From IMG/VR virus record IMGVR_UViG_3300028790_000006, positions 1 to 57,336 of that record: a DNA stretch of 57,336 nucleotides; one strand, given 5' to 3'. A model generated the notes under the pieces. That model did not search any database and had not been told where the DNA came from. It was given only the letters and a program-made list of their open reading frames with translations. The position numbers were made by a program, and so were the translations under genes. The DNA comes from a virus. Its lineage: Duplodnaviria > Caudoviricetes. The first letter of the stretch is position 1, and each line of letters starts with the position of its first letter. Below are positions 10,955 through 34,789 of the stretch, one piece after another.

Positions 10955-11187
10955 GGCCACGTGTAAACGTCTGTGGGTGCCTGACACGCGAGTTTGAGCG
11001 GGTCCACGTTGGCCTGGGGTGCGCGTGTCGCCCACCTGCCGGCCGTGATCGCCAGGTCATCGGACTGCGGTGCGTGCACTGCCGCCGCGAGCCAGAGATT
11101 GGAAGCCGAAAGGCCTACGCGGAAGCCTGGTCGTCGTCGCCCTGGGGTGCGGACGACATCGAGTTCTGTCCCAGCAGCGGACCATGA
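10951..11187 (+). CDS. Cys-rich hypothetical protein
   Basis: ATGA overlaps at both ends; CGC, CAC and CVHC. Confidence 0.5.
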   Translation: MRPRVNVCGCLTREFERVHVGLGCACRPPAGRDRQVIGLRCVHCRREPEIGSRKAYAEAWSSSPWGADDIEFCPSSGP

Positions 11188-12701
11188 CCGGGGTTCTGAC
11201 CGCGGCGGCCGACCTGATCGACCCGGACGTCTCGGTCGAGCGGCCCGAACTGGCCACCCCGGCCACGCTGGCCGCCCACCTCGACCAGACCTACCAGCTG
11301 CGCGCGCACCTCGTGCTGATCGGCGAGGAGCTCGCCGAGTTGGAACGCGGCACCGCGTTCGACCGGCTCATCGTCAACACGCCGCCGCGGGTCGGCAAGA
11401 CGCGCCTGGCCGTCGAGTGGTTCGTCTTCTGGTGGCTGATCAAGCACCCGACGCACCGGGTGATCATCGCCTCGTATGACGACTCGCTCGCCCAGCGGGC
11501 CGGCAAGCACATCCGCCGGCTCATCGAGATGTACGGGGCCCGGTACGGGCTGGTGATGGAGCACGGGTCGGCCGCCGCGAAAGACTGGTCACTGACCACC
11601 GGCGGCGGTGTGCGGTCCGTCGGCATCGGGTCCGGCATCACCGGTCACGACGGCGACGTGCTGATCGTGGACGACCCGACCAAGTCCCGGGCCGAGGCTG
11701 AGAGCGCCCGTCGGCGTGACTCGGTGTACGACTGGTGGTCGTCGGAGTTCTCCACCCGCGTGGTGCCGGGCACCCGGATTTTGATGATCCAGACGCCCTG
11801 GCACCCGGACGACCTGCGTGTGCGCGTCGTGGCACAGGAAGGCCGGATCGAGAACGGCGGCCGCTGGCGCGAGGTCATCATGTCGGCCATCTGCGAAGAT
11901 CCGAAGACCGACCCGCTCGGTCGGGCGCCCGGCGAGCCGCTCCCGCACCCGCGCATCCCCGATGGCGAGACCGGCCGCCTGCTCAAGTGGTGGGAGCGGA
12001 TCCGCTCGGCCATCGCGGTGCGGGACTGGCGGGCGCTCTACCAGTGCGACCCGAAGGCGCCCGAAGGCCAGCTGATCACCGAGACGCTGCTGCGTGAGCG
12101 CCGCTGCCACGAGACCGGCACCTGCTCGACCCCGACCAGGACGGGGGTGGCCATCGACCCGAGCGGCGGCGGCCGGGACACGGCCGGCATCATCGGCGGG
12201 TACCTGGGCGAGGACGGCCGGTGCCACTTCACGCACGACGCGTCCGGGGTGATGCCGTCCGACGCGTGGGCCCGGGCGGCCTGTGTGATGGCCGCCGACA
12301 TCGGGGCCGAGTTCTTCGTGGCCGAGAAGAACTACGGCGGCGACATGATCAAGCTCATGTTGCGCACGTCGTGGGACGCGCTGCGGACGGCTCAGCCGGC
12401 GCGGTTCGGCTTCATGCCGCGGATCATCGAGGTCACCGCGAAGAAAGGGAAGGTGCTGCGCGCCGAGCCGATCGCGCAGCAGTGGACGGAGAACCGCATT
12501 GTCACCGCGGCCTACCTGCCCGACCTTGAGTCCGAATGGTCCACCTTCATGCCGGGTAGTACGGAGTCCCCGGGCCGCATCGACGCGTCGGTCTACCTGG
12601 CGTATGAGCTGCTGCCGCTGCCGTCGGCCGGTGTGCCGTCGAGCGCTGGCGTCTCGTCGTTCATCGACGCCACCCTGCTGGGCGGGACCTGGGGCCGGTG
12701 A
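11184..12701 (+). CDS. terL: Terminase large subunit
   Basis: PPRVGKT, LIVDDP, QTPWHPDDL, nuclease motifs AIDPSG, EKNYGG, SPGRIDA; ATG at 11184. Confidence 0.93.
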   Translation: MTGVLTAAADLIDPDVSVERPELATPATLAAHLDQTYQLRAHLVLIGEELAELERGTAFDRLIVNTPPRVGKTRLAVEWFVFWWLIKHPTHRVIIASYDDSLAQRAGKHIRRLIEMYGARYGLVMEHGSAAAKDWSLTTGGGVRSVGIGSGITGHDGDVLIVDDPTKSRAEAESARRRDSVYDWWSSEFSTRVVPGTRILMIQTPWHPDDLRVRVVAQEGRIENGGRWREVIMSAICEDPKTDPLGRAPGEPLPHPRIPDGETGRLLKWWERIRSAIAVRDWRALYQCDPKAPEGQLITETLLRERRCHETGTCSTPTRTGVAIDPSGGGRDTAGIIGGYLGEDGRCHFTHDASGVMPSDAWARAACVMAADIGAEFFVAEKNYGGDMIKLMLRTSWDALRTAQPARFGFMPRIIEVTAKKGKVLRAEPIAQQWTENRIVTAAYLPDLESEWSTFMPGSTESPGRIDASVYLAYELLPLPSAGVPSSAGVSSFIDATLLGGTWGR

Positions 12702-13750: not shown

Positions 13751-13876
13751 GTGGAGACCGGGACCGAGGGCCAGCCGCCGCTGAGTGGATGGCCGCTGGC
13801 CATCACGCTGTCCGTATTCGCGCTGGCGGTCGCCGCCTGCTGCGTCGGGGTGACCTGGATTGTGGGGACCACGTGA
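13751..13876 (+). CDS. Small membrane protein (41 aa)
   Basis: GAGGA RBS; LAITLSVFALAVAACCVGVTWIV. Confidence 0.5.
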   Translation: METGTEGQPPLSGWPLAITLSVFALAVAACCVGVTWIVGTT

Positions 13877-14298
13877 GACTGCTCTTCGCTCTGGCACTGG
13901 TGGTCATCATCGCCAGGCTGACCAGGCTGGCGATCGTGGACGAGTGGCCGCCGGCCAAGGGTCTGCGGCACTGGTTCGTGCGCACCTTCGCCACCGTCGA
14001 CCGCCGCGGCAACGTGGTGCCGGACCCGGCGCGCTGGGGGCGGCTGGCCGGCCTGGCGCACGCGGTGGCCTACGTGTGGACCTGCCCGTGGTGCATGTCC
14101 ATCTGGGTCGGGTTCGCCGTCTGGGGCATCGCTGACTGGTCGTTCTGGGGCGCGAAGGCCGACATGAGCGTGTCGTGGCCCTGGGCCATTCTGGCCGCCG
14201 GGTCAATGCTGGCCGGCTGGGATGCCAACATGCAGGGCGAGCACGACAAGCGCTACGAGGTCATGGAGCGCAAACTGCTCGGACACGACGACTCGTAG
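13873..14298 (+). CDS. DUF1360-like membrane protein
   Basis: RLTRLAIVDEWPP and TCPWCMSIWV. Confidence 0.75.
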   Translation: MRLLFALALVVIIARLTRLAIVDEWPPAKGLRHWFVRTFATVDRRGNVVPDPARWGRLAGLAHAVAYVWTCPWCMSIWVGFAVWGIADWSFWGAKADMSVSWPWAILAAGSMLAGWDANMQGEHDKRYEVMERKLLGHDDS

Positions 14299-14917: not shown

Positions 14918-15101
14918 TTCCCCCTAGCGCGACCGGGCCAGCCGTCCCGGATCTGCGCCGGATCAGCGCCGCCGCGTCTCCCCCGCCTGGTCGTATTCCC
15001 CGTTCGGCCAGGCGGTCGCGGTGGCGCTGTTCTGTGCCTGGCGGTGATCTCCGTCTACGATGGCGTCAACTGTCCGGCCACGGCGAACCACGGGGGTGAG
15101 C

Positions 15102-16709
15102 ATGCCGCAGAGCCTGCGTATGCCGGCCCTGATCGCCGCACCGACCCCGGCCGCCGACGTGGTGGTCGCCGCCGCCCAGGCGTACACCCCGACCGAGTGG
15201 CGTAACGCCCAGGTCTTCGGCGGCAACAACCCCTGGGAAAACGAGGCCTGGGGGTTCTGGGACACCCTCGGCGAGTTCTATCAGGCGGTCGACTGGCAGT
15301 CCCGGGCCATGTCCCGGATCCGGCTCGGCGCGGCCGAGGTGGTGCCCGGCGGCGACGAGCCGGAGATGCTGACCGAGGGCGCCGCGGCCGACCTCATGCA
15401 GTCGTTCTGCGGCGGCGCGCCCGGCCACTCGGCCTTCCTGCGCGCCATCACCCCGCAGATGCTCGTGCCCGGACAGGGCTGGCTGATCGCCGAACGCAAC
15501 GACCCGTTCGCCCCCCTGGCCACCGCGGACTGGGGCGTCTACTCCATGGACTGCGTACAGGGCCTCGGCTCGACCTTCCAGGTGCGGGTGGGCCCCGGCG
15601 CGTGGCGCTACCTGGCGCCAGACAACCTGCCCATGCGCATCTACAACCCACACCCGCGCTGGCCCTGGCTGGCCACCTCGTCCGCCCAGGCCGCCCTGCC
15701 GATCATGCGCCGCATTCACCTGATCGACTCACGCATCGTCGCCATGATGGTCAGCCGGCTGGCGATGAACGGGCTCATGCTCATCCCCGAAGAGGGCACG
15801 CTCGGGGTGCCCGACACGTACAAAGACGCGCCGGACCCGTTCGTCGCCATGTTGATCGACATCGCGTCGCGCAACATCGCCAACCCAGGGCAGGCGTCCG
15901 CCGGCATCCCGATCCCCGTGCGGTTCGCCGGCGAGCTGATCGACAAGTGGAAGATCCTCAAGCCCGATGACCCGCTCGACGAGTGGCTGCTCAAAGAGCG
16001 CACCGACGAGCTGGGCCGACTCGGCGACACGCTGGGCATCGCGCGGGAGCGCGTCACCGGCGGCATGGGCCAGCAGAATCACTGGAACGCGTGGCAGGTC
16101 AGCGAGGAAGAGGTCAACCTCGCGTTCTCTCCGCTGGCCGAAGTGATCTGCGGGGCGCTGACCAAGGCGTACCTGGTGCCGATGCTGACCGCGTCCGGCC
16201 AGTCCCTGGTGGGCCCGAACGGCGGCAAGCTCATCGCCTGGTACGACACCAGCGAGCTGGCCGCGCGCCCGGACAACAGCGCCAACGTGCGCCAGGCCTA
16301 CGTCGACGGCGTGGCCAACGAAGAGGCCTACCTGCGCGAGATCGGCCTGGGCGAGGCCGACGCGCTGCGCGACCCGGACGAGATCGAGACCTGGGCCTAC
16401 AAGCGCTTCATCGTCGGCGGCACCGCCGAGCTCGCCCCGGCGGGCCTGGCCGGTCTGACCGGCGTCCAGACTCCGGCGGCTGGGGCCGCGGCACCGCCGG
16501 CTGCATCCGGCGCACCGGCGACGGGGCCTTCGGTCTCGGCGTCAGAACCCGCGGCCCCAGCGGCCGGCCCCCCAGCCACGCGCGGCACACCCCCGCCGGC
16601 GCCGGTGACCGGTCCGCCGGCCATGGCCGCGTCCGGCGTGCTGCGCAAGGTGCTGGTCGAAGCCGGCGCGCTGAACGGGCACAACGGACACAATCCCCAG
16701 TCGGGGTAG
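15102..16709 (+). CDS. Portal protein
   Basis: Position and size; WENEAWGFWDTLGE, IYNPHP and NHWNAWQ motifs of actinophage portals. Confidence 0.85.
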   Translation: MPQSLRMPALIAAPTPAADVVVAAAQAYTPTEWRNAQVFGGNNPWENEAWGFWDTLGEFYQAVDWQSRAMSRIRLGAAEVVPGGDEPEMLTEGAAADLMQSFCGGAPGHSAFLRAITPQMLVPGQGWLIAERNDPFAPLATADWGVYSMDCVQGLGSTFQVRVGPGAWRYLAPDNLPMRIYNPHPRWPWLATSSAQAALPIMRRIHLIDSRIVAMMVSRLAMNGLMLIPEEGTLGVPDTYKDAPDPFVAMLIDIASRNIANPGQASAGIPIPVRFAGELIDKWKILKPDDPLDEWLLKERTDELGRLGDTLGIARERVTGGMGQQNHWNAWQVSEEEVNLAFSPLAEVICGALTKAYLVPMLTASGQSLVGPNGGKLIAWYDTSELAARPDNSANVRQAYVDGVANEEAYLREIGLGEADALRDPDEIETWAYKRFIVGGTAELAPAGLAGLTGVQTPAAGAAAPPAASGAPATGPSVSASEPAAPAAGPPATRGTPPPAPVTGPPAMAASGVLRKVLVEAGALNGHNGHNPQSG

Positions 16710-16712
16710 GCC

Positions 16713-19700
16713 GTGGTGCAGCGCGTTCAAGGCCTGCGCGATGACCAGATCATGGCCTGGGAGGCGCGTCTCGAGGCCCAGATGGTCGAGTCGTTGCAGG
16801 CCGTCATGGATAAGATCGCCGCCCGGATTGCGAAGATTCAGACGGCGTCAGCGCGCGTGCTCGTCGCGGTGGCGACCACCGGCCCGGACGGGGACGACGA
16901 CCCGCCGCCCATGACCGCCGAGCTGGAGATCCCGGCCCCGGTCCCGCAGCCCGAGACCATCCCGGCGACCCCGGACCTGCCGCCCGGCCAGCCCTACATC
17001 TCACCCGACGACCTGGCCTCCATCCCGCCGCTCTGGCAGCAGGCGGTGGCCGACCAGCTGCTGCCGCTGGCGGCCGAGGTCTTCGTGGACTCGGCGCTCA
17101 AGGTCCGGGCCGAGATGATCGACGCGCTGCCGCTGCGCAGCATCCCGGCCCTGGGCAGTCTGGCCGCCGAGCAGTACCTGGCCCAGGCGAAGAACACATT
17201 CGAGCAGGTCGGGGATCACCTGTGGGCCACCGCCCGGGCGCAGCTGTCGCAGGGCTTCGAGGCCGGCGAGTCCATCCCGCAGCTGGCCGACCGCCTGCGC
17301 CAGAGCGCCGGCCTGTCCGCCCGGACCGGCGTGCTGGTCGCCCGCACCCAGGTCATTGAGGCTTCAAACTCCGGCTCGATCGCCATGGCCCGGGTCAGCG
17401 GCATCGAGATGCTCAAAGAGTGGATCGCCACCCCCGACCTGCGCACCCGCCCCACCCACCTGGCGGCGGATGGCCAGCGGGTCGCGCTCTCGGCCCCGTT
17501 CCTGGTCGGCGGCTTCACCTGCGACTTTCCGGCCGCCCCGAACCTGCCGCCCTCCGAGCGGTATTCGTGCCGCTGCACCCAGGGCTACGTCATCCCGGAC
17601 CGGGAAAAGGCGCCGCCGCGTGCGGATCCGCTGACTGAACTGCCTGGCACCAGCGCGCCGGCCACGATCGACGACCTGGCGGCTGAGCAGTCCGCCCGCC
17701 TCGGCGAGATCATCGACGACCAGCACCAGCAGCTCGAAGCCGTCATCGACGACGTGCACGAGCGCTTTCAGCGTCGATTCCTGGCCAAGCCGGCCGGCCC
17801 GGGGTTCGACCAGCCCGCGTACGGCGACCATCCGCCCGGCTATGTCCGGCCGTCGCTGCAGGCCGCGAAGACGCCGCGCCAGCTGCGCAAGGTCTGGCAG
17901 GACGAGGTTCAGGCCGTCACCGGATACCCGTTTTTCGTGGACGCGATGCCGCGCGGGATCTCCATGGCCACGGCGCGCGAGTACGCCGAGGGCACGCTGC
18001 AGATGTTCGCCCAGTTCCCGGCGGCCAAAATGGATCGGATTCACTGGTTCGACGAACCGACCGGCCCCTACGCCCGGGTCCGGACCGGCGGCCACGCCAT
18101 CGAGATCAACATGCGCTACGCGGCCGAGTCGGCGCGGTCGCGGTTCCTGGCCTCGCGCAGGAAGGACGTGGTCGCGTGGGAGACGCGGCCCACCGCGTGG
18201 AGCGTGCGCAACGACGTCCCCGCGCAGGGCGTCATCTATCACGAGTTCGCCCACATCATCGACGAGGAGAACCTGCGCCGGGCCATCCATCCTCAACTGG
18301 TCCCGCTGATGATCCGCCACGCCCAGCGCGAGGGCGTCACCGACATCGACGACCTGATCAAGCGTCGGGTCTCGACGTACGCGACCGAGAGCCATCACGA
18401 GCTCATCGCCGAGGCCACCACCGATGTCATGGTGAACGGGTCGGCCGCGTCTGCCATGTCGCGCGAGATTTTCGACCTGATGCGGGCCGAGTACCGCCGG
18501 CGCGGCTACGAGATCCGCGACGCCGCGCCCGACCTCGACGCAGACCTGGCGGCCGAGGCCGAAGCGGCCGGCAACGTATTCCCGAAGGCGCCGAGCCTGG
18601 CCAGCCGCACCGTCGCCGACCTGCGGGCGCTGGCCAGGGAGCGCGGCATCACCGTGCCGGCCGGCACGCGCAAAGCCGACCTGGTGCGCCTGCTCGACGA
18701 GTCCCCGCCCGGTCCAGCGGTCTCGGCGCCTGCGGTTCGCAGCGCTCGGTCGATCACCGACCTAGCTAATGAGACCCCGATCCGCGTCACGCCACTTGAG
18801 GGCGGCGTCACGGCGAAGGTCGAGCGACTCGACTTCGCAGGAGGTGATTCGGCCGTCCGCAAGGACTACATGGGGTTGCGCTCCGGTGGAGCGGAAGCGC
18901 TGCGTGACGCTGACCACCGCGTGTCGTCCGAGGTGCTGGCCGCTGATGTACTCCGTGCCGTTGGCGTGCGGGCACCAGCCGTGGTCCGGCTCAACGATCA
19001 CACACTGCTCATGGACTTTGTCGCTGGAGATCAGGGCGGGGCTGACGGCGTTCTCAAGGCGCCGGCGGCCATCGTGCGTAGCGCGGAGGGACGTCGACTG
19101 GGGCTGGCCGACGCGATCATGGGCCACCGGGACCGGGCCGGCGGCAACTGGATGCGCGCGCCGGACGGCGGCATCGTGGCCATCGACAATGGCGGAGCCT
19201 TCGGCGGCGTCGGCGCGGACCGGGCCGCAGCGGGCAACCCTTTCACGTCCTTCCTGATGGGTCCATATGAGGAGTCCCCCTGGAAGGCCAGGATTGAGCT
19301 TCCGTCCGATATCGACCTGGCGGAGATCCGGCGGAAGCTGCTGGCCCTGCGGCCGAGATTTGACGATGCCGGATTCCAGCGCCAGTTCAAAGACATGCTG
19401 GGTCGTCTCGATGAGGTCGGGCGCCGCGCCGTCCGCGTTCCACCCGCGCCGCGTCTCGCCCCCGACGTCGACCTGATCCCCGGCGCCCCCGGGCCGGCAT
19501 CCGCGCCGGTCGCCGGTCCGCGTCTGGCCACCATGAAGGTCGGTGAGCTGCGCGACCTGGCCCGGGCCCGCGGCATTCCCGACGCGGCCAAGCTGCGCAA
19601 GGCCGACCTGGTCAAGGCGCTCGAGGCCTCGGGCGCCGGACCCGACCTCGCCGACGTGGCCCGGACCAGGCAGGCCGTGATCGACGACCGGCGCGCCGTC

Positions 19701-21380
19701 GCCACCGCCCTGTCCGAGGCGTCCGAGCTGCTGGCCAACGGGGCCAGCGAGCGTGCCCTGGGCGCCCGGTCCGGCCAGATCCTGGGACGCGTCTCGGGCC
19801 AGGTCGCTGACGATCTGGCGCCGCTGGCCACGGCCATGCGCGGCGGGGATGCGGCGGCCATCCGGACCGCGCTGGACGACCTGGCCACGCGGCGCGGCCT
19901 GCGGCCCGTCGTGCCCGACGGCGATGCGGTGCCGTTCGACGCCAAGACCATGGAGCTGCTGCCGGGCACCTCGCGCCCGCCCGCCGGCACGCTGGTGCGC
20001 GTCGTGCGACTCGGCTATGAGGTCGACATCAACGGCGAGACGGTGCAGCTCGGGAAGGCCGTCGTCGACCCGCTCAGCGCCGACGAGATCGCCGCCGTGC
20101 AGCGCCGGGCCACGCGGGCCGCGGCGCGGGAGCGCAACCGCCTGATCGAGTCGCGCGCCGCCACCGCGCGCCTGCTGGCCTCGGTCGACGAACTCGTGGC
20201 GAAAGGTGCCAGCCGCTCGGCCATTCGGGAGCGCCTCGACCCGGCCCTGCGCCAGGCCGAGCAGGAGTTCGCCGGCGCGGACGACGCGGTGGCCAAGGCG
20301 CTGCTCGACGCGCTCGAGACCGGCGACACGGCCAAGCTTAAGAGCGCGATCACGCGGTCCGGGACCAGCGTGAAGATCAAGGCGGTCAGCAAGGCCGGGG
20401 CGAAGGCGAAGTTCGACCCCGACACCATGGAGGCCGTCGGCGGCGTCGACATTCCGGCCGGCGCGGCCGTCCAGGTGGTGCGGCGCGGTTCGACCTTGAC
20501 CCTGCCTGACGGCGAGGTCATCACGCTGTCGAAGCCGCAGGTGACGGTCGTTGGGAAGCCGACGGCGCAGGCCGCCCCGGCTGCTCGACTCGCCCCCGGC
20601 GAGTCACTGGCTGAGCGGACGCAGGCGGTCGCACGCCTGCAGTCCCAGACTCCGACCGCCGAACGCCAGCTTGGCGGCGGCCTCGTCGGGGAGGTCGACA
20701 TGCTGACCTATCCCGACGGCATCAGGGCGGTACGAAAGCGCCTCTTCGGTCGCCGGGCCGAGGCGACGGCCGCCCAGCGCCAGTTTGAGATCGACGCCGA
20801 AGTCTTCGGCCCGTCGGTGCTCGACGCCGTGAGCGTGCGCGCGCCGGGCGTCGTCCGCAGCGGTGACGGCGAGATTCTCATGGAGTTCCTGGACGGCGAC
20901 ACCTTCGCTAGCAAGTATCCCGACTTCGGTTACGGCAACCCAGAGCACTGGGACGTGGTGGTGACGGCCAAGTACGCCGATACCGCGGACGGTCGGATGA
21001 TCGGGTTGGCCGACTACCTCATGGGCAACACGGACAGAAACGCGGGGAACTGGATCATCCAGGCGGATGGCTCATATGCCGGTATTGATCACGGTTACGC
21101 GTTCCTTGGTCAGCGCGGCACCGATGTGCCGTCCGGGTTCTTCACCCGCTACCTGCACGATGGCCCGTCGAAGGCCGGCCCCGGTTATGTCCTGCGGTCC
21201 CAGGTCGACTTGAATCCTGCCGACCTCGCGGTGGTGCGCTCGCGCCTGGCCGCCCAGCGCGCCCAGTACGTCGAGGCCGGTCGCAAAACCTGGCACGACG
21301 CGATCATGCGGCGGCTGCGCGAGGTCGAAAAGCGAGCCGATCCCGCCGCGCCCGTTCGCATCGCAGGGCTGGCCAAGTGA
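16713..21380 (+). CDS. Giant MuF-type minor head protein with multiple effector domains
   Basis: MuF motifs KEWIAT.D.RTRPTH..ADGQ and CRC; HEFAH..E metallopeptidase; two PI3K/HipA-like kinase domains; two Rho-N-like and two GrpE-like repeats. Confidence 0.85.
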   Translation: MVQRVQGLRDDQIMAWEARLEAQMVESLQAVMDKIAARIAKIQTASARVLVAVATTGPDGDDDPPPMTAELEIPAPVPQPETIPATPDLPPGQPYISPDDLASIPPLWQQAVADQLLPLAAEVFVDSALKVRAEMIDALPLRSIPALGSLAAEQYLAQAKNTFEQVGDHLWATARAQLSQGFEAGESIPQLADRLRQSAGLSARTGVLVARTQVIEASNSGSIAMARVSGIEMLKEWIATPDLRTRPTHLAADGQRVALSAPFLVGGFTCDFPAAPNLPPSERYSCRCTQGYVIPDREKAPPRADPLTELPGTSAPATIDDLAAEQSARLGEIIDDQHQQLEAVIDDVHERFQRRFLAKPAGPGFDQPAYGDHPPGYVRPSLQAAKTPRQLRKVWQDEVQAVTGYPFFVDAMPRGISMATAREYAEGTLQMFAQFPAAKMDRIHWFDEPTGPYARVRTGGHAIEINMRYAAESARSRFLASRRKDVVAWETRPTAWSVRNDVPAQGVIYHEFAHIIDEENLRRAIHPQLVPLMIRHAQREGVTDIDDLIKRRVSTYATESHHELIAEATTDVMVNGSAASAMSREIFDLMRAEYRRRGYEIRDAAPDLDADLAAEAEAAGNVFPKAPSLASRTVADLRALARERGITVPAGTRKADLVRLLDESPPGPAVSAPAVRSARSITDLANETPIRVTPLEGGVTAKVERLDFAGGDSAVRKDYMGLRSGGAEALRDADHRVSSEVLAADVLRAVGVRAPAVVRLNDHTLLMDFVAGDQGGADGVLKAPAAIVRSAEGRRLGLADAIMGHRDRAGGNWMRAPDGGIVAIDNGGAFGGVGADRAAAGNPFTSFLMGPYEESPWKARIELPSDIDLAEIRRKLLALRPRFDDAGFQRQFKDMLGRLDEVGRRAVRVPPAPRLAPDVDLIPGAPGPASAPVAGPRLATMKVGELRDLARARGIPDAAKLRKADLVKALEASGAGPDLADVARTRQAVIDDRRAVATALSEASELLANGASERALGARSGQILGRVSGQVADDLAPLATAMRGGDAAAIRTALDDLATRRGLRPVVPDGDAVPFDAKTMELLPGTSRPPAGTLVRVVRLGYEVDINGETVQLGKAVVDPLSADEIAAVQRRATRAAARERNRLIESRAATARLLASVDELVAKGASRSAIRERLDPALRQAEQEFAGADDAVAKALLDALETGDTAKLKSAITRSGTSVKIKAVSKAGAKAKFDPDTMEAVGGVDIPAGAAVQVVRRGSTLTLPDGEVITLSKPQVTVVGKPTAQAAPAARLAPGESLAERTQAVARLQSQTPTAERQLGGGLVGEVDMLTYPDGIRAVRKRLFGRRAEATAAQRQFEIDAEVFGPSVLDAVSVRAPGVVRSGDGEILMEFLDGDTFASKYPDFGYGNPEHWDVVVTAKYADTADGRMIGLADYLMGNTDRNAGNWIIQADGSYAGIDHGYAFLGQRGTDVPSGFFTRYLHDGPSKAGPGYVLRSQVDLNPADLAVVRSRLAAQRAQYVEAGRKTWHDAIMRRLREVEKRADPAAPVRIAGLAK

Positions 21381-21607
21381 CGTACCATGCGGTCATGAAG
21401 CGGGACCTGGTCTCAGTGCGGCATCCGCGCACCGCGCTCGGCGCGGTGGTCAGCGACGCCCGGGGCAGGCGCTTTGAGGGCCAGGCGGCCAACGTGCTGC
21501 GCGGCCCGATCAACGAGTTCGGCGAGGCAGCGGTGATCGCCGATGTCATGGAGCACGGCTGGGCCAACGCGGCGGGGCTCTACTTCGCCGAGCCGGTGCC
21601 ATCGTGA
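21377..21607 (+). CDS. Hypothetical protein (possible immunity or partner of the MuF effectors)
   Basis: Overlaps the MuF stop; alternative leaderless ATG at 21395 after TACCAT. Confidence 0.6.
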   Translation: MTYHAVMKRDLVSVRHPRTALGAVVSDARGRRFEGQAANVLRGPINEFGEAAVIADVMEHGWANAAGLYFAEPVPS

Positions 21608-21858
21608 CCGGCCCGCTGCCACACATCGGCCTCGGTACTGGTTTCGCCCGGTCGCTGTATCCCGACGGCAACACCCTCGACGAGGCCGCGGCCAGCGCGA
21701 CCGCCGCGTTCCAGATGCTGGCCAACATGCTCATGGGCCCGCCCGGTCGCCCCAGCGCCCGCGTGCCCGACGTCGAGCCTGAGGTCATCGACGAGCGCGG
21801 CCCGATCCGCGTGCGGGCCGCGGTCGGCCGACCCGTCCTCGAGATCGAGCAGGCATGA
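21604..21858 (+). CDS. Hypothetical protein
   Basis: GTGA and ATGA overlaps with neighbours. Confidence 0.6.
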   Translation: MTGPLPHIGLGTGFARSLYPDGNTLDEAAASATAAFQMLANMLMGPPGRPSARVPDVEPEVIDERGPIRVRAAVGRPVLEIEQA

Positions 21859-22823
21859 GCGCCCGCGCGCAGGCTCAGTGCGCCCCGTCGTGCGCCCGCT
21901 ACCGGTCACCGTTCAGCGAGGAGAACCTGACCGGGCTGACGCGCCCGTTCTGCGCCGCCTTCCCCGACGGCATCCCGGCGGCCATCTGGGACAACCAGGC
22001 TGACCACCGCGAGCCCTACGAGGGCGACCACGGTCTGCGGTGGGAGAGCCTCGACGGGCAGGCCTTCCCCACCTACGCGTTCGGCCCTGGCATACTCGAC
22101 CGCGTGACGGATCAAGCGGTGACGGCGGCGGCCGACGTGCTCGACGGCGCGATGATCGCGCTGGTTCCCAGCGCTCCAGATCTCGAGCGTCTCGCGATAT
22201 CCGGGGGCGAGACGCTCGACCAGCTCCACCTGACCGTGCTCTTTCTGGGCGACGCCGCCGCTATCGACGAGCCGACCCGCCAGGCCCTGCGCGACTGGGC
22301 GGCCGAGGTGGTCGGCCCGTGGGACAGCGTGGCTGGCGACGCGTTCGCCCCGGCCGTGTTCAACCCGGCCGGCGATGAGCCGTGCGTGGTCATGATCGTG
22401 GGCGGGGCTGAGGTGGCCGAGTTCCATGAGACCGCCCTCGCTGACGTGAGCGAGTTTTTCGCGCTGCCCGACCAGCACCAGCCCTACATCCCGCACGTCA
22501 CCCTGGCCTACGTGACGCCGGACGGGGCGCCCGGCGTCGGTGCGATCGACATTGACGAGCTCGGCCGCACTGGCCCCATCACCTTCGACCGCCTGCGTCT
22601 CGCCTTCGGGGGCGAGGTGTTCGACGTGCCGTTCGCTGAGCCCGGCGGCGCGTCGGATGAGCTGGCCACGGTTGCTGAGACGCAGGACGAGCCGTCGGAC
22701 GTCCGGCTTGAGCCAGCGCCGGCGACCGTGGCCAGCGCCAACCCGGACCGCGAACTCTTCGACGGGTGCCTGCGATGCTTCCGCCTCGCGCATCATGGAG
22801 AGTGCGCCCGGTCGGCGCTATGA
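21855..22823 (+). CDS. 2H phosphoesterase (2'-5' RNA ligase-like) with an N-terminal Cys domain
   Basis: Paired HxT motifs LHLTVLFLG and PHVTLAY; N-terminal C..C..CAAFPDGIP..DH..P..GDHG. Confidence 0.85.
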   Translation: MSARAQAQCAPSCARYRSPFSEENLTGLTRPFCAAFPDGIPAAIWDNQADHREPYEGDHGLRWESLDGQAFPTYAFGPGILDRVTDQAVTAAADVLDGAMIALVPSAPDLERLAISGGETLDQLHLTVLFLGDAAAIDEPTRQALRDWAAEVVGPWDSVAGDAFAPAVFNPAGDEPCVVMIVGGAEVAEFHETALADVSEFFALPDQHQPYIPHVTLAYVTPDGAPGVGAIDIDELGRTGPITFDRLRLAFGGEVFDVPFAEPGGASDELATVAETQDEPSDVRLEPAPATVASANPDRELFDGCLRCFRLAHHGECARSAL

Positions 22824-22841: not shown

Positions 22842-24530
22842 GTGACCATGCAGCCAGACTTTCCGCCTGAGGATGACCCCCAGGTTCTACAGTCCGAGTT
22901 CGACGTGCCTGATGTCGACGGCCTCGCCGACGACGCGCTCAACGGTGACAGCGTCGAACTGTTTGACGTAACAACGATGCTGCCGGGCACGCCCTGCTAC
23001 GGGGTGGCCTGCGTCGAGGGCATCCCGGACGGCTCGACCCCGCAGCGCATGTGGGCGCCGGGCTCGCTGGTCTTCGCGCCGACCCCGTTCCCGCTCAAGT
23101 TCCAGCCGGCCGAAGATGACGGTCACAGCGGCTCGATGGTGTCCGGACGCGTCGACGCCATGTGGCGCGACGGCGCGCTGATCCGCTGGATCGGCGTCAT
23201 GGACTCGGCCGGCGTGGTCGGCCGCGAACATGAGCGGCTCATCGGCGGCAAGTTCATGACCGGCGTCTCGATCAAGGCCGACGACCTGGACGAAGCGGAC
23301 GTTGAGTACATCTACCCGGCCGGCCCGGACCCGTCCGACGAGGTCGAGGTGGACGGCGAGGTTGTCGAAGACGTCGAGGGTGAGGCCGATTTCCACTACC
23401 CCGGCCGGCACAACCAGGCCACTCACGGGCACGGCGCCAACGGCAAGGGCAAGGCCAGCAACCGCCAAAAGGCGGCGGCGGCCAAGCGCATCAAGGCCCG
23501 GGGTGACAAGTTCCTGAGCGGTGAGCGCTCGGTCGACGGCGCCGTAGTGGCCGACGGCGCCGAGATGATGGACATGCCGCGCCCCAGCATGATCATTTAC
23601 CACCACGGGCGGGTGCGAAGCCTGACCGGGGTGGCCGAGGCCGCGTTCATCGAGTGCACCGTTTCGCTGGGTGAGTCGCCGTTCAGTCCGCCGATGGTGC
23701 CCGAGGCATCCCCGCTGGCCGAGCTTGAGGCCCTGGCCATCGAGGCCGAGACGCCGGTGCCCGTGGCCGTTCCGCTGGTGGCGGCGGGCTACACCATCAC
23801 CATCCCGCAGCTGTGGCCCGAGTCGTGGTTCTCCGAGCCGAGCCCTGCCGAGATGGCCATGGTCGCCGGCGGCGCCATCCACATCACGCCCGAAGGCCGG
23901 GTCTGGGGCCTGCTGGCGCCGGACGGCGTCAACCACCGGGCCTACCGGGCCGGCCCGCGGGCACAGTACGCGCCGCGCGGCATCGACTACTCGGAGTGGC
24001 AAAACAAGGCCTGCATCGTGGCCGGCGCCGACGGCAACGCCTACAAAATCAACGCCGGCACGGTCACGTTCGGGTGCGGCCACGCCAGCCCGGTCGATCC
24101 GCGCCGGGCCAACCCAGCCTGGGCGGCCGAGCACTACGAGAACAGCTGCTCGGTGGCCATGCGCGCCCGGGTCGGCGAGAACCGGTTCGGCACCTGGTTC
24201 GCTGGCGGCCTCAACCACGGCCTGACCGCGTCGTCCCTTGAGGAGATCATGGGCTGCGCGCTGTCGGGTGACTGGCAGGGCGGCAAGCTCAAGGGCGCCC
24301 TGCTGGTGCCGGTGGAAGGCTTTCCGGTCGCGGTCACCGCGTCGGTGCGCGAAAAGATGGGCACGCTCGTCGCGTCGTCCGTCCCGATCCGCTTCGACGC
24401 CCCGCCGCCGCCGCCGAGTTACGACTGGGTCTTCGACCTGGTGGCCAGCGCCACCGGCCGCGGGCCGGCCGCCATCTTCGACGAGCTGGCGGCCGAGCGC
24501 TTCGACGAGCTCGCACGGGAACGGGGGTGA
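22842..24530 (+). CDS. Capsid maturation protease
   Basis: Position before the capsid gene; DGH..S...GRVD, GVSIKADD, ALSGDW motifs. Confidence 0.7.
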   Translation: MTMQPDFPPEDDPQVLQSEFDVPDVDGLADDALNGDSVELFDVTTMLPGTPCYGVACVEGIPDGSTPQRMWAPGSLVFAPTPFPLKFQPAEDDGHSGSMVSGRVDAMWRDGALIRWIGVMDSAGVVGREHERLIGGKFMTGVSIKADDLDEADVEYIYPAGPDPSDEVEVDGEVVEDVEGEADFHYPGRHNQATHGHGANGKGKASNRQKAAAAKRIKARGDKFLSGERSVDGAVVADGAEMMDMPRPSMIIYHHGRVRSLTGVAEAAFIECTVSLGESPFSPPMVPEASPLAELEALAIEAETPVPVAVPLVAAGYTITIPQLWPESWFSEPSPAEMAMVAGGAIHITPEGRVWGLLAPDGVNHRAYRAGPRAQYAPRGIDYSEWQNKACIVAGADGNAYKINAGTVTFGCGHASPVDPRRANPAWAAEHYENSCSVAMRARVGENRFGTWFAGGLNHGLTASSLEEIMGCALSGDWQGGKLKGALLVPVEGFPVAVTASVREKMGTLVASSVPIRFDAPPPPPSYDWVFDLVASATGRGPAAIFDELAAERFDELARERG

Positions 24531-24764: not shown

Positions 24765-26633
24765 ATGCCGAAGAACCCAGCCGCGGGCACCGGCAATGAC
24801 GGTGCCTCCTACAGCCTGCCCGAGCTGGACGGCCTGACCGCCGACCAGCTCGGCGAACACCTCGCCGACGTCAACGGGCGCCTTGACACCATCCTGGCCA
24901 AGCGCGACCCGGCCGACCTGCCGACTCTGGGCGAGCTGCGCACCGCGCGGCAGACCATCATGGCCCAGCAGGGCAAGGTCGCCGCCGCGCAGGCCGAGAT
25001 CGACGCCCAGTTCGACGAGATCGCCGCCGAGATGGCCGAGCCGGCCGCCGACGCTGACGCCGAGGTCGTCGAGGGCGAACTGATCGACGCCAACGGCACC
25101 GCGCAGGCCCCGGCCGCCGCGCCCGCCGCTGCCGCTCCGGCCACCCCGCAGCTCGTCACCGCTTCGGGCCGGCCCGCTGGCGGCGCCGTTACCGCGTCCC
25201 GCGAGACCGGCGGCCTGTCCGGCGGCGCGAACCGCCTCAACCCGAGCCTGTCCGGCGCCCGCGCCGCGGCCCCGGCCGTTGAGGCGCCGAGCCTCGACGA
25301 ACTGGTCATGACCGCATCGGCCCACTCGGGGGCGGCCAAGCTCAACATGGGCGACCGCATCGGCGGCATCCGCCAGCTCGGCGACCTCGTCGAGGACCGG
25401 GCACGCGGGATGGCCGACGCGCAGGGCTTCCGCCAGGCGGCCCCGGGCAACACGGCCTTCCAGCACCAGGCCCGCCGCCATGACGCCCCGTACGGCGGCA
25501 CCATGGTGGCCTCGATCCAGAACAAATTCGACACCGTGCTGCACGACAAGTCGAGCACCGAGGCCGTGCAGGCCTACGTCGACAAGCTGTCCGCCCAGCG
25601 CTCCGGCTCGGCCTTCGAGTCGCTGGTGGCGGCCGGCGGCTGGTGTGCCCCGAGCCAGATCCGGTACGACTTCTTCAACATCGCCGGCCAGTCCGGGATG
25701 ATCGACCTGCCGACGTTCGGCGTCGAGCGGGGCGGCATCCAGTACCCGATCTCGCCGAGCCTGGCCGACACGTTCAGCCCGGCCCTGCCCTGGTACACCG
25801 CGTTCAGCAACGCCACCGTGCCGTGGCTCTGGACCGAGGGCGACGACATCCTGGCCGTGACCGGCTCCCCGACGAAGCCGTGCATCCGGGTGCCATGTTC
25901 GACCATGGATAACCGTCGGCTGGAGTGCTACGGCATCTGCCTGACCGCCGGCAACCTGGCCGACAACGCGTGGCCGGAGTCGACCGCCAACTTCATCAAG
26001 CTCCTGATGTCGGCGCACTACCACGCCAGCAACGCGCGCTACATCTCGACGATCGCCGGGATGGCCGTCGCAAACGCCGGCTGCACCGCCACCGGTTCGG
26101 GTGCGGCGGCGCCGCTGCTGTCCACCGCCGAGCTCTCCGCGATCGACTACCGGGCCAAGTACGGCATGGCCCGCACCGATGTCATCGAGTGGGTTCTGCC
26201 CGAGTGGGCGCTGGGCCTGGTCCGAGCCGACCTGGCCAAGCGCACCGGCGTGGGCGACTTCATGAGAATCCCGGACTCCGAGATCGCGGCCTGGTTCGAC
26301 GTGCGCGGCATCCGCGCCCAGTTCGTCCAGGACTACCAGGTGCGCGCGGCCGGCCAGCCGGGTGCGAGCACGACGGGCGGCATCACCCAGTACCCGAGCA
26401 CGCTCAAGGGCCTGATGTACGCGGCCGGCACGGTGGCCCGCGGCAACGGCATGAACCTGGACCTGGGCGTGGTCCGCGACTCCACCCTGAACGCGCGGAA
26501 CGACTTCACCGCGCTCTGGATGGAGGAGTGCCACCTCATCGCCAAGTTCGGCCACGAGGTGCGCGAATACACCGTCAACGTCTGCCCCGACGGCACCACC
26601 GGCGCGGCCGACCTGACCAGCTGCTGCCCGTAA
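24765..26633 (+). CDS. Major capsid protein with N-terminal scaffold
   Basis: Coiled-coil N-terminus; LVAAGGWCAPSQIRYD, KPCIRVPC, RDSTLNARND. Confidence 0.9.
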   Translation: MPKNPAAGTGNDGASYSLPELDGLTADQLGEHLADVNGRLDTILAKRDPADLPTLGELRTARQTIMAQQGKVAAAQAEIDAQFDEIAAEMAEPAADADAEVVEGELIDANGTAQAPAAAPAAAAPATPQLVTASGRPAGGAVTASRETGGLSGGANRLNPSLSGARAAAPAVEAPSLDELVMTASAHSGAAKLNMGDRIGGIRQLGDLVEDRARGMADAQGFRQAAPGNTAFQHQARRHDAPYGGTMVASIQNKFDTVLHDKSSTEAVQAYVDKLSAQRSGSAFESLVAAGGWCAPSQIRYDFFNIAGQSGMIDLPTFGVERGGIQYPISPSLADTFSPALPWYTAFSNATVPWLWTEGDDILAVTGSPTKPCIRVPCSTMDNRRLECYGICLTAGNLADNAWPESTANFIKLLMSAHYHASNARYISTIAGMAVANAGCTATGSGAAAPLLSTAELSAIDYRAKYGMARTDVIEWVLPEWALGLVRADLAKRTGVGDFMRIPDSEIAAWFDVRGIRAQFVQDYQVRAAGQPGASTTGGITQYPSTLKGLMYAAGTVARGNGMNLDLGVVRDSTLNARNDFTALWMEECHLIAKFGHEVREYTVNVCPDGTTGAADLTSCCP

Positions 26634-32722: not shown

Positions 32723-32740
32723 TCAGCCACGGGGGTGGCC

Positions 32741-34789
32741 ATGGGTCAGCCGATCGATACCGCCGAAGTCGAGATCGTCCCCGACTTCGGCGACTTCGCG
32801 CGCCAACTCAAGGCCGGTATCGACCAGGCGCTGCGGGGCGTACAGACCGCGGTCACCCAGGCCTTCGCCCGGGTCGAGGACGCCGCGGGCCGAGCCGGTA
32901 CCGACGTCGGACAGGAATTCCAGCGCGGCGGGGAGCGGGCTGAGGCCGCGTTCGGCGAGGTGTCGCGGACCGCCCGCAAGGAGTTCGCCGAGGTCGAGGC
33001 CGCCGCCGCGGCCACCAGCTCGGGCATGTCCGGCAAGTTCGGCGGCGCGCTGGGCATCATTAAGACCGGCCTGCTCGGCATCGGCATCGCGGCCGGCGCG
33101 GGGCTGGCCGCCGTTACCGCTTTCGGGCTCAAGTCCGCGGCCGACCTAGAGCAGACCACGGTCGGCATGACCGCGCTGACCGGCTCGACCGAGACCGCGC
33201 TGGCGTTCCTGGGCGAGCTGCAGACCTTCGCGGCGTCCACGCCGTTCGAGTTCGCTGGCGTGGCCGACGCGTCGCGGCGCATCCTGGCCTTTGGGCAGAG
33301 CGTCGGCATCGCGCGCAACGAGGTCATCCCGACGCTGACCACTATCGGCGACCTGGTCAGCGTGCTCGGTGGCACGCAGGAGTCCGTCGACTCGGTGGTC
33401 CGGGCGCTGTCTCAGATGGCCAGCAAGGGAAAGCTCTCCCAAGAGGAGATCATGCAGCTGGCCGAAGCCCTGCCGGGCTTCAACGCCAATGCTGCGATTG
33501 CGGCCCAACTCGGCCTGTCCGTCGGCGACACCCTGGAACTGATCAGCGCCGGCGGGGTCGACGCGACCACCGGCATCAACGCCCTGCTGTCCGGGATGGC
33601 GCAGTTCCCCGGCGCGGCCGGGGCCATGGCCGCCCAGGCACAGACCCTGTCCGGTGTGTTCTCGACCTTCAAAGACACGGCCTCGATCGCGCTGACCAAC
33701 GCTTTCCAGCCGGTCATCCCCGAGATCAAGAGCGCTCTGGCCGACCTCACCCCCATCCTGGGGTCGGCCATCGGCCAGCTGGCGCCGAGCCTCGGCGGCG
33801 CGCTGTCGGCGATTCTGCCCATCGTCGGCAAGCTCATCACGGCCATAGTCCCGATCTTGACGCCGCTACTCGACGCCCTGGGCCCGGTGCTCGACGCCAT
33901 CGGCCCGGCCCTGATCCCGCTGGGCGAGGCCCTGGGCCAGCTCATCGTGGCGCTGGCCCCGGTCCTGCCGGTCCTGGCCCAATTCATCGCCGTCTTGGCG
34001 CTGCTGGCCATCCCGATTATCAAGCTGCTCGCCGCGGTGCTCATCCCGCTGACGCCGGTCCTGAATTACATGGCCCTTGCCATCGGCGAGGTGGCAAGGG
34101 CCCTCGGCATGATCAACTGGACCGAGGTCGGCGAGGCCATCTCCGGCGCGTTCGCGAAGGCCTGGCACGCGGTCTCGGACTTCGTCGTTGGGGTGGCCAA
34201 AGCGATCTTCGGGTTCGGCGAGATGCTCGGCACGAAGCTGCGCGAGTTCATCGCCAACATCGCCCTCTTCGTGGCCAACCTGGTGCTATGGGTCCAGTCC
34301 ATCCCCGATCGCATCCTTGAGGCTCTGGGCAACTTCGGTAACCTGCTGTACTCCAAAGGCCGTGACCTGATCGTCGGTCTATGGAACGGCATCAAAGACA
34401 TGGGCTCATGGCTCTGGGGCAAGATCACCGGCTTTGTCGGGTCGTACGTCACCGGCCCCATCAAGGCCGCCCTGGGCATCGCGTCGCCGTCCACGGTCAT
34501 GCGGGACGAGGTCGGCAAGATGCTGCCCGCTGGCATCGAAGAGGGCGTCCGAGCCGGCATCCCGTCGCTGGCCGGCCTCATTGGCGGCATCGTGCCCAGC
34601 GGGGCCGGCGGGGCGGGTGGCGGTGGAGCGGGCGCCATGGCGTTCGGGGGCATTACGATCAACCTAGTCTTCAACGGCGGCGTGCCATCCGAGGGCGAGG
34701 CCCGCTCGCTGGGGTCGGCCGCGGGGGACGCACTCATGGCCCGGATCACCGCTCAGCGCAACATCATGCTCGCCGGGCGCACCGCGTGA
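32741..34789 (+). CDS. Tape measure protein
   Basis: FAASTPFEF, ALSQMASKGKLSQEEIMQLAE, amphipathic repeats, LGIASPS. Confidence 0.93.
   Translation: MGQPIDTAEVEIVPDFGDFARQLKAGIDQALRGVQTAVTQAFARVEDAAGRAGTDVGQEFQRGGERAEAAFGEVSRTARKEFAEVEAAAAATSSGMSGKFGGALGIIKTGLLGIGIAAGAGLAAVTAFGLKSAADLEQTTVGMTALTGSTETALAFLGELQTFAASTPFEFAGVADASRRILAFGQSVGIARNEVIPTLTTIGDLVSVLGGTQESVDSVVRALSQMASKGKLSQEEIMQLAEALPGFNANAAIAAQLGLSVGDTLELISAGGVDATTGINALLSGMAQFPGAAGAMAAQAQTLSGVFSTFKDTASIALTNAFQPVIPEIKSALADLTPILGSAIGQLAPSLGGALSAILPIVGKLITAIVPILTPLLDALGPVLDAIGPALIPLGEALGQLIVALAPVLPVLAQFIAVLALLAIPIIKLLAAVLIPLTPVLNYMALAIGEVARALGMINWTEVGEAISGAFAKAWHAVSDFVVGVAKAIFGFGEMLGTKLREFIANIALFVANLVLWVQSIPDRILEALGNFGNLLYSKGRDLIVGLWNGIKDMGSWLWGKITGFVGSYVTGPIKAALGIASPSTVMRDEVGKMLPAGIEEGVRAGIPSLAGLIGGIVPSGAGGAGGGGAGAMAFGGITINLVFNGGVPSEGEARSLGSAAGDALMARITAQRNIMLAGRTA

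Follow-up and report, generated by a model that had tools for sequence, protein, structure and literature searches.

Polyvalent proteins, as described by Iyer, Burroughs, Anand, de Souza and Aravind in 2017 (PMC5512222), are large many-domain polypeptides encoded among virion genes, and the prophage MuF-fused toxins of Zhang et al. 2012 (PMC3482391) combine a common MuF N-terminus with a variable C-terminal effector and a small downstream gene. Here we describe a protein of this general kind, a MuF-fused head protein of 1555 amino acids (aa) encoded at positions 16713-21380 of IMG/VR record IMGVR_UViG_3300028790_000006. The window, i.e., the whole stretch analysed, is this single virus record of 57,336 bases (completeness estimate 82%; G+C 69.5%), and it comes from an uncultured, high-GC, siphovirus-like phage. 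The kind is known, namely a polyvalent MuF protein; new are a two-subtype kinase module resembling CtkA and type II phosphatidylinositol 4-kinase (PI4K-II), an apparently GrpE-derived unit (the R unit), and a small gene that appears to be coupled to the terminal kinase. The multi-enzyme proteins that phages carry in their heads are regarded as their earliest weapons in an infection, and few of their modules have a known activity.

The 1555-aa protein shares with polyvalent proteins the MuF or portal anchor, a zincin-like HExxH...E peptidase hub, Rho-N DNA-binding domains and, in its relatives, the ADP-ribosyltransferase (ART) that is a frequent partner domain (PMC5512222). It carries at least two unrelated effector-type domains and lies among virion and packaging genes with a MuF fusion, the features by which polyvalent proteins are recognised. 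The kinase clade of that survey differs, since it comprises truncated Ser/Thr/Tyr kinases found in prophages of Verrucomicrobia-Chlamydia and Bacteroidetes; the terms PI3K, CtkA, HipA, GrpE and DnaK do not occur in its main text, and an unnamed 'LPD' domain might equal our kinase or R unit. Unlike the MuF-fused toxins (PMC3482391), which carry one toxin, the present protein was counted as having eight modules beyond MuF (those named are MuF, the peptidase, two HeH motifs, two GrpE-like units and two kinases), has an internal processing peptidase, and belongs to an apparently complete phage genome.

Helicobacter pylori CtkA (PDB 3akk/3akl) and PI4K-II (PDB 4hnd/4hne) are only 13-14% identical in sequence to the second kinase, K2, which, unlike them, is embedded in a phage head protein, occurs in a system with two subtypes and is often preceded by a GrpE-like unit. 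With GrpE (PF01025; PDB 8gb3, 1dkg and 4ani), the R units share a profile-profile match whose columns take in the last part of the helical bundle as well as the beta domain; unlike GrpE, their helical bundle is predicted within one chain, and they are internal repeats of a phage polyprotein. We did not find the module combination in open-access papers or bioRxiv, where the 'GrpE-like' phage literature, judged by titles and opening abstract lines, concerned Pseudomonas phage tail fibres and an inovirus, and the literature on PI3_PI4_kinase in phages dealt with viral domains of host origin in general. MuF-fused toxins of prophages were reportedly also treated by Jamet et al. in 2017.

Module map and the peptidase domain

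The open reading frame (ORF) begins with GTG 3 nucleotides (nt) past the portal stop codon, and 88% of its third codon positions are G or C; the database holds an identical protein of 1554 aa. Its modules and the two small ORFs that follow are listed below.

16713..21380, + strand: polyvalent MuF-fused head protein (P0001), 1555 aa (ORF list, translation)
17235..17579, + strand: MuF (SPP1 gp7-like) head/portal-associated domain, aa 175-289 (Pfam PF04233, PHROG)
17865..18557, + strand: zincin-like metallopeptidase domain, aa 385-615 (HEFAH, aa 510-514; E563 as putative third ligand)
18609..18701, + strand: HeH/Rho_N/SAP motif 1 (HeH1), aa 633-663 (Pfam)
18753..19430, + strand: predicted atypical kinase K1, internal subtype (A2 profile; K717, E740, D807, N812, D825)
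19524..19622, + strand: HeH/Rho_N/SAP motif 2 (HeH2), aa 938-970 (Pfam)
19665..20102, + strand: GrpE-like unit R1 (member of alignment A3; 33% identical to R2)
20115..20582, + strand: GrpE-like unit R2 (helical bundle and small beta domain)
20628..21338, + strand: predicted atypical kinase K2, C-terminal subtype (K1342, E1363, D1441, N1446, D1459)
21377..21607, + strand: small ORF s1, 76 aa ('GW(S/A)N' motif near the C-terminal end)
21604..21858, + strand: small ORF s2, 84 aa

An initial annotation, made from the sequence alone, had read this ORF as a MuF head protein with a zincin-like HEFAH..ELIAE peptidase, two HeH/Rho-N-like motifs, two kinases and two GrpE-like units. Its coordinates agree with the ORF list and the translation, and each of these module calls was borne out, the kinases and GrpE-like units by the evidence given in the next section. 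The MuF match to Phage_Mu_F (E 5e-14; 53.4 bits, cut-off 29.6) covers profile positions 4-110 of 112, and the same region matches PHROG head-morphogenesis and portal families with E-values down to 2e-30. Three Pfam models exceeded their cut-offs at the same two places, each with two copies: Rho_N (45.6 bits, cut-off 24.9), HeH (35.2 bits, cut-off 28.9) and SAP (29.9 bits, cut-off 23.9). Self-comparison of the protein revealed three internal duplications that are far beyond chance, between the HeH motifs (55% identity, E 1e-10), the R units (E 6e-11) and the kinases (35% identity, E 9e-32). A phmmer search of PDB sequences with the whole protein gave no match at E<=1.

The peptidase call rests on four residues. 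The HEFAH motif starts with residue 510 (nt 18240) and the ELIAE motif with residue 563 (nt 18399); H510, E511, H514 and E563 are invariant in all six aligned sequences, corresponding to HExxH and a downstream Glu as the third ligand. This arrangement has been described for the zincin-like metallopeptidases of polyvalent proteins, which were proposed to cut such proteins into working units (PMC5512222). The Atlas leads for the putative peptidase, at 0.94, were viral zinc metallopeptidase clusters. Family searches weigh against the assignment: the best family, Peptidase_M90, remained below its cut-off of 26.2 bits both in the whole-ORF Pfam scan (16.4 bits, E 0.007) and in the scan of the six members, two of which it matched (20.8 bits), and no other peptidase family passed its threshold. 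The peptidase profile returned only chance-level rows from PDB sequences (E>=0.05). Judged by its conserved residues, aa 385-615 is probably a zincin-type HExxH...E peptidase domain.

Two kinase subtypes and the GrpE-like units

The two kinases were detected by Pfam as PI3_PI4_kinase (PF00454; 46.5 bits against a cut-off of 27.1, summed across two stretches), and the relative P0028 scored 101 bits with the same model. We aligned 14 kinase domains, namely the window's own two and 12 others encoded in 10 IMG/VR loci. The Lys (K717/K1342), the Glu (E740/E1363), the D-R-x-x-x-N loop (D807/N812 and D1441/N1446) and the metal-binding I-D (D825/D1459) were invariant in all of them, and K1 matched the A2 profile with an E-value of 1e-72. 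AlphaFold gave a confident model of K2, with a predicted local distance difference test score (pLDDT) of 85.4 and a predicted template modelling score (pTM) of 0.87. Foldseek placed PI3-kinase gamma at the top by E-value (4e-7), with modest template modelling scores (TM-scores) of 0.36-0.44. The two-lobed kinase fold together with the Lys, the Glu, the catalytic Asp and Asn and the metal-binding Asp is what characterises the group of CtkA, PI4K-II and actin-fragmin kinase, and the kinases of the window show these features. The Atlas leads pointed to PI3_PI4_kinase clusters, HipA_2, LepB_N and actin-fragmin kinase, and NCBIfam returned only sub-threshold rows (SCO1664 family, Bud32 and RIO1-like). 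Two observations count against this assignment: the Pfam match spans approximately 40 of 241 profile positions (136-175), i.e., the catalytic loop only, and the best E-value of the kinase profile against PDB sequences was 0.11. We conclude from the sequences that K1 and K2 are probably active, paralogous kinases of the CtkA/PI4K-II-like atypical type. That the kinases are dead was rejected, every catalytic column being invariant.

A recent tandem duplication of K1 and K2 was also rejected, because the two are 35% identical to each other and 59-68% identical to kinases of other phages and fall into separate tree clades. In a midpoint-rooted FastTree phylogeny of 34 kinase domains from close-relative proteins, K1 grouped with the internal kinases of P0003, P0005, P0006 and P0030, to which it is 60-68% identical, and K2 fell in a clade of 18 kinases, 15 of which are C-terminal. 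As for substrates, proteins seem more likely than lipids, by analogy, since the nearest solved structure is a protein kinase.

GrpE is the nucleotide exchange factor of DnaK. To compare the R units with it, we used an alignment (A3) of 13 units from six sources, approximately 150 residues long, in which a helical part precedes a small beta part, and an alignment of 21 GrpE proteins of actinobacteria, limited to their C-terminal halves and beginning after the region that holds the long N-terminal helix. The two matched in hhalign with a probability of 96.4% (E 1.2e-9, 79 columns; 96.1% and 3.3e-9 in a rerun), whereas five controls, comprising reversed alignments and the kinase and peptidase alignments, reached 0.1-0.6% (E 0.1-0.6). 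The R units share the segments 'GL..G..G.(P)FDP..(H/M)E' and 'V.V.RPGY' with the GrpE profile, and R1 aligns to the actinobacterial profile across 'GL..G..FD...ME' and 'V.VVR.GY'. The match is confined to the C-terminal part (template columns 51-136 of 149) and does not include the long N-terminal dimerisation helix.

Structure prediction, which the initial annotation had proposed domain by domain, supported the K2 kinase fold with confidence and was less decisive for the R unit. R2 was modelled with a pLDDT of 88.1, and GrpE structures headed its Foldseek list against PDB (3a6m, 9a81, 1dkg, 4ani and 8gb3), with E-values of 0.065 or worse; GrpE was the only family in the Foldseek lists that spanned both subdomains of the model, and neither BFVD nor PDB held a match at E<=0.001. 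The R-unit profile found only chance-level rows among PDB sequences (E>=0.05). Pfam speaks against the relationship, as its GrpE model detected nothing in the six frames of the window at E<=10 and matched none of the 13 R units scanned one by one. Because the profile-profile match is strong and the controls lie at chance, we nevertheless read the R units, at the level of sequence profiles, as genuine though distant homologues of GrpE's C-terminal half that stand outside the Pfam family as defined. They form two subtypes, each 53-75% identical across phages and 33% identical to each other, and the invariant His of the GrpE motif 'FDPxxHEA' is Met in most of them. A complex prediction of R2 with the nucleotide-binding domain of Micromonospora DnaK, run without controls, gave 0.01 and 0.00 against a mark of 0.32 and counts neither way.

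Relatives, module exchange and the overlapping small gene

A search with residues 330-1555 returned 32 proteins of 1037-2454 residues, i.e., the window's own and 31 relatives, nearly all of which are unnamed metagenome proteins. The relatives carry the modules of the window in other orders and copy numbers, and Pfam detected further modules (ART, NUDIX, DUF3626 and an intein) in the five relatives scanned. The N-terminal anchor is also exchanged: a VG15 domain replaces MuF in one relative, and another carries a portal domain. In the 2160-aa protein P0008, residues 279-529 contain a weak intein-splicing match (E 2e-4, under the cut-off) and a collagen-like repeat just after MuF.

The nearest phage, L002, has a portal protein 81% and a capsid protein 72% identical to those of the window. 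Its counterpart of the 1555-aa protein is collinear through MuF, the peptidase and HeH1 at 68-80% identity; after HeH1, it continues with an R unit, a kinase, a second R unit and a DUF3626-type end, whereas the window continues with K1, HeH2, R1, R2 and K2. This change of the C-terminal modules is cassette-like variation.

The kinase profile detected 4894 proteins at E<=1e-3 among 1.84 billion cluster representatives (1452 at E<=1e-10 and 568 at E<=1e-30), and the best 150 of the 4894 ranged in length from 181 to 6274 residues. We counted architectures in 171 proteins; the MuF count of 37 is a minimum, since MuF was sought in them with one sequence only. Of the 171 proteins, 46 had between two and four full copies of the kinase, and 59 contained R units, 105 in all. 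The next module within 80 residues of an R unit was a kinase in 36 cases, another R unit in 29 and an HeH motif in five; one unit was followed by the protein end and 34 by none of these. When proteins 57-273 aa long were searched with the R-unit profile, a single relative emerged, and this was a fragment. In two IMG/VR loci (L013, 5735-8675, and L015, 5852-8675), three frames with a kinase domain follow one another head to tail, in reading frames that differ and overlap, which suggests either tandem separate kinase genes or frameshifts inside one long gene.

Deposited phage genomes gave a different picture. The kinase was present in three of 50,697 phage records, representing two distinct phages, Microbacterium phage Pumpernickel and Micromonospora phage pMLP1 (28% identity). 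In these records, tblastn with the 1555-aa protein matched only the MuF part and Pumpernickel gp82, tblastn with the R unit found no match, and megablast of the 1555-aa gene found none either. Pumpernickel gp82 (YP_010755113.1, a hypothetical protein of 2235 aa) carries the kinase as its very last part (25% identity; E 8e-25 with the A2 profile); it differs from the window protein in that no R unit, peptidase or s1 was detected in the stretch examined and in that its genome is 186 kb long. In locus L075 (33383-45315 of the Pumpernickel record), gp82 and a second giant hypothetical protein, gp84 (approximately 1534 aa), are adjacent, and a 205-aa gene between them overlaps the end of gp82. Among bacterial genomes, a prophage of Micromonospora sp. 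NPDC049366 encodes a three-kinase protein of 2454 residues. Upstream of it lie the genes for a methylase and the large terminase and then one unassigned ORF, and MuF has a gene of its own farther along. A scan of the genome collection with kinase alignment A1 gave no confirmed locus; the P0028 query found its own Micromonospora record. The combination is thus recurrent in metagenomes and nearly absent from deposited phage genomes, so that its description as unusual in the initial annotation holds for deposited phages and for the open-access and bioRxiv literature but not for metagenomes, where the 31 relatives and the 568 clusters at E<=1e-30 are found. A widespread and apparently active kinase module, often multi-copy in giant proteins, is almost unrepresented in cultured phages.

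The GTG start codon of s1 overlaps the TGA stop codon of the 1555-aa ORF (GTGA). Five database relatives of s1 are 70-76 aa long and 49-69% identical to it, and no family was found for it in Pfam, PHROG or NCBIfam. With an s1 profile built from six loci, we looked for an s1-type frame that begins within approximately 30 nt of the stop of a kinase-ending frame; L020, cut by the contig end, was left out of the count. Such a frame follows the terminal kinase in six of 11 loci (the window, L005, the near-identical L011, L007, L014 and L017). Against the coupling of s1 to the kinase stand the other five loci, L012, L013, L015, L016 and L018, which have no s1 after the terminal kinase, and the s1-type frames that L012 (E 1.7e-9) and the Micromonospora prophage (L025) carry at places not adjoining a kinase. 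We did not find s1 in L002, L004 or L006, whose proteins end in other modules. The linkage is therefore suggestive rather than proof, and s1 is a candidate partner of the terminal kinase, putatively an inhibitor, an immunity protein or a chaperone. As a conserved small gene and candidate partner, it offers a directly testable kinase-partner pair.

Both small ORFs had been suggested as immunity proteins; this idea retains some support for s1, through its overlap and linkage, but not for s2. The single relative of s2 (43% identity) is in L002, where the large protein ends without a kinase, and in both the window and L002 s2 lies directly upstream of a 2H-phosphoesterase gene. Hence, s2 is probably not part of the kinase cassette.

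Proposed function, alternatives and the surrounding genes

We consider it fairly probable, if well short of certain, that the 1555-aa protein is a virion-delivered polyvalent effector of an uncultured phage, probably one of Actinomycetota. The MuF domain would place the protein inside the capsid at the portal, the HeH motifs would hold it on the packaged DNA, and the protein would leave the capsid together with the DNA, after which the peptidase may separate it into modules; this chain is modelled on published polyvalent and MuF-fused proteins (PMC5512222, PMC3482391). The two kinase subtypes would then phosphorylate different host targets early in infection, the GrpE-like units, often just ahead of kinases, would serve as chaperone-related handles or targeting modules, and s1 would pair with the terminal kinase in the producing cell as its cognate inhibitor or chaperone. 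The effector reading is supported because the gene lies between the portal and capsid genes, its anchor is swapped among relatives, and its C-terminal part is reshuffled among them, with ART, NUDIX and DUF3626 modules exchanged for its own. These observations carry the initial suggestion of a MuF protein with an effector extension, for which packaging and injection remain an argument from analogy. If the kinases act on host proteins, they would form a new class of injected phage kinases in Actinomycetota. Actinomycetota include the main antibiotic producers and the mycobacteria.

A more specific and, in our view, unlikely version holds that the R units are single-chain GrpE mimics that dock the host DnaK (Hsp70) on entry, giving each module its own co-chaperone handle, while s1 silences the terminal kinase in the producer. 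Docking could, with the same low probability, provide a handle for refolding after unfolded passage through the tail, or deliver the kinases to DnaK and its clients. If true, a protein injected by the phage would hijack the Hsp70 cycle and couple it to phosphorylation. Phages have long been known to depend on the Hsp70 system, and a GrpE relative in a phage polyprotein may link such proteins to it. The R units might instead be structural spacers of GrpE descent that have lost any chaperone-related function, a possibility that we take seriously while doubting it. It would explain why Pfam does not recognise them as GrpE, why the His is replaced by Met in most units, and why 34 of the 105 units have no kinase or other known module behind them. 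Both subtypes are, however, kept at 53-75% identity across phages despite their distance from each other, and the GL..G..FD and VVRPGY segments are retained; this conservation argues for a maintained surface over a mere linker.

The same protein could function only in the producing cell, as a MuF assembly factor whose extension recruits or modifies host chaperones and phage head proteins and is removed before, or without, ejection. Its position among head-assembly genes and its GrpE-like modules would suit chaperone-assisted assembly, and DdrB of phage P1, which is cleaved before packaging, is a precedent (PMC5512222). We nonetheless regard such a role as improbable: the variable modules of the relatives, such as ART and NUDIX, are typical of host-directed effectors rather than of assembly, and C-terminal sets that differ between phages with 81% identical portals fit conflict-driven turnover better than a conserved assembly role. 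The arrangement of a terminal kinase followed by s1 could also be that of a MuF-type polymorphic toxin and its immunity protein, acting against competing bacteria or in phage exclusion. This seems very unlikely to us, as the contig, with its genes for replication, head and tail, resembles a complete, functional phage rather than a prophage remnant, the protein has several effector modules and a processing peptidase rather than a single terminal toxin, and s1 is missing in five of the 11 loci and belongs to no known immunity family. Equally slight is the chance that the kinases phosphorylate lipids, namely phosphatidylinositol or its mannosides, and so remodel the host membrane at entry. Phosphatidylinositol and its mannosides are present in Actinomycetota, which is unusual among bacteria; the nearest solved structure points to proteins, as noted above.

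The gene order of the head module is terminase, portal, 1555-aa ORF and capsid protein. The landmark genes of the window are as follows.

11070-12701: large terminase
15060-16709: portal
24765-26633: major capsid protein
32735-34789: tape measure

Other genes encode a primase/polymerase, a DNA methyltransferase, a helicase, tail proteins and an exonuclease. The host is probably an actinobacterium (Actinomycetota), because the cultured capsid proteins nearest to that of the window, at approximately 32% identity, come almost wholly from Actinomycetota phages; the 877 records with a capsid match include 496 Mycobacterium, 198 Gordonia and 131 Microbacterium phages.

The gene downstream of s2 (21855-22823, + strand) encodes a 2H phosphoesterase/LigT-like protein with two HxT motifs (HLTVLF and HVTLAY). 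Its match to Pfam 2_5_RNA_ligase2 (E 2e-5, 25.1 bits) is slightly under the cut-off of 27, and its first 78 residues correspond to a separate small frame in L005, L006 and L011. Since 2H domains are listed among the phage-type modules of polyvalent proteins (PMC5512222), this gene may, by analogy, encode a further effector of the head module. A DUF1360 membrane-type protein (E 4e-6, over the cut-off) is encoded at 13789-14298 (+ strand), between the genes for terminase and portal, and it is kept in L002 and L004. Between the 2H and capsid genes, 22842-24530 (+ strand) encodes a 562-aa protein for which Pfam and NCBIfam gave no family; it is probably a prohead protease or scaffold, because its PHROG matches are labelled portal-fusion and head maturation protease.

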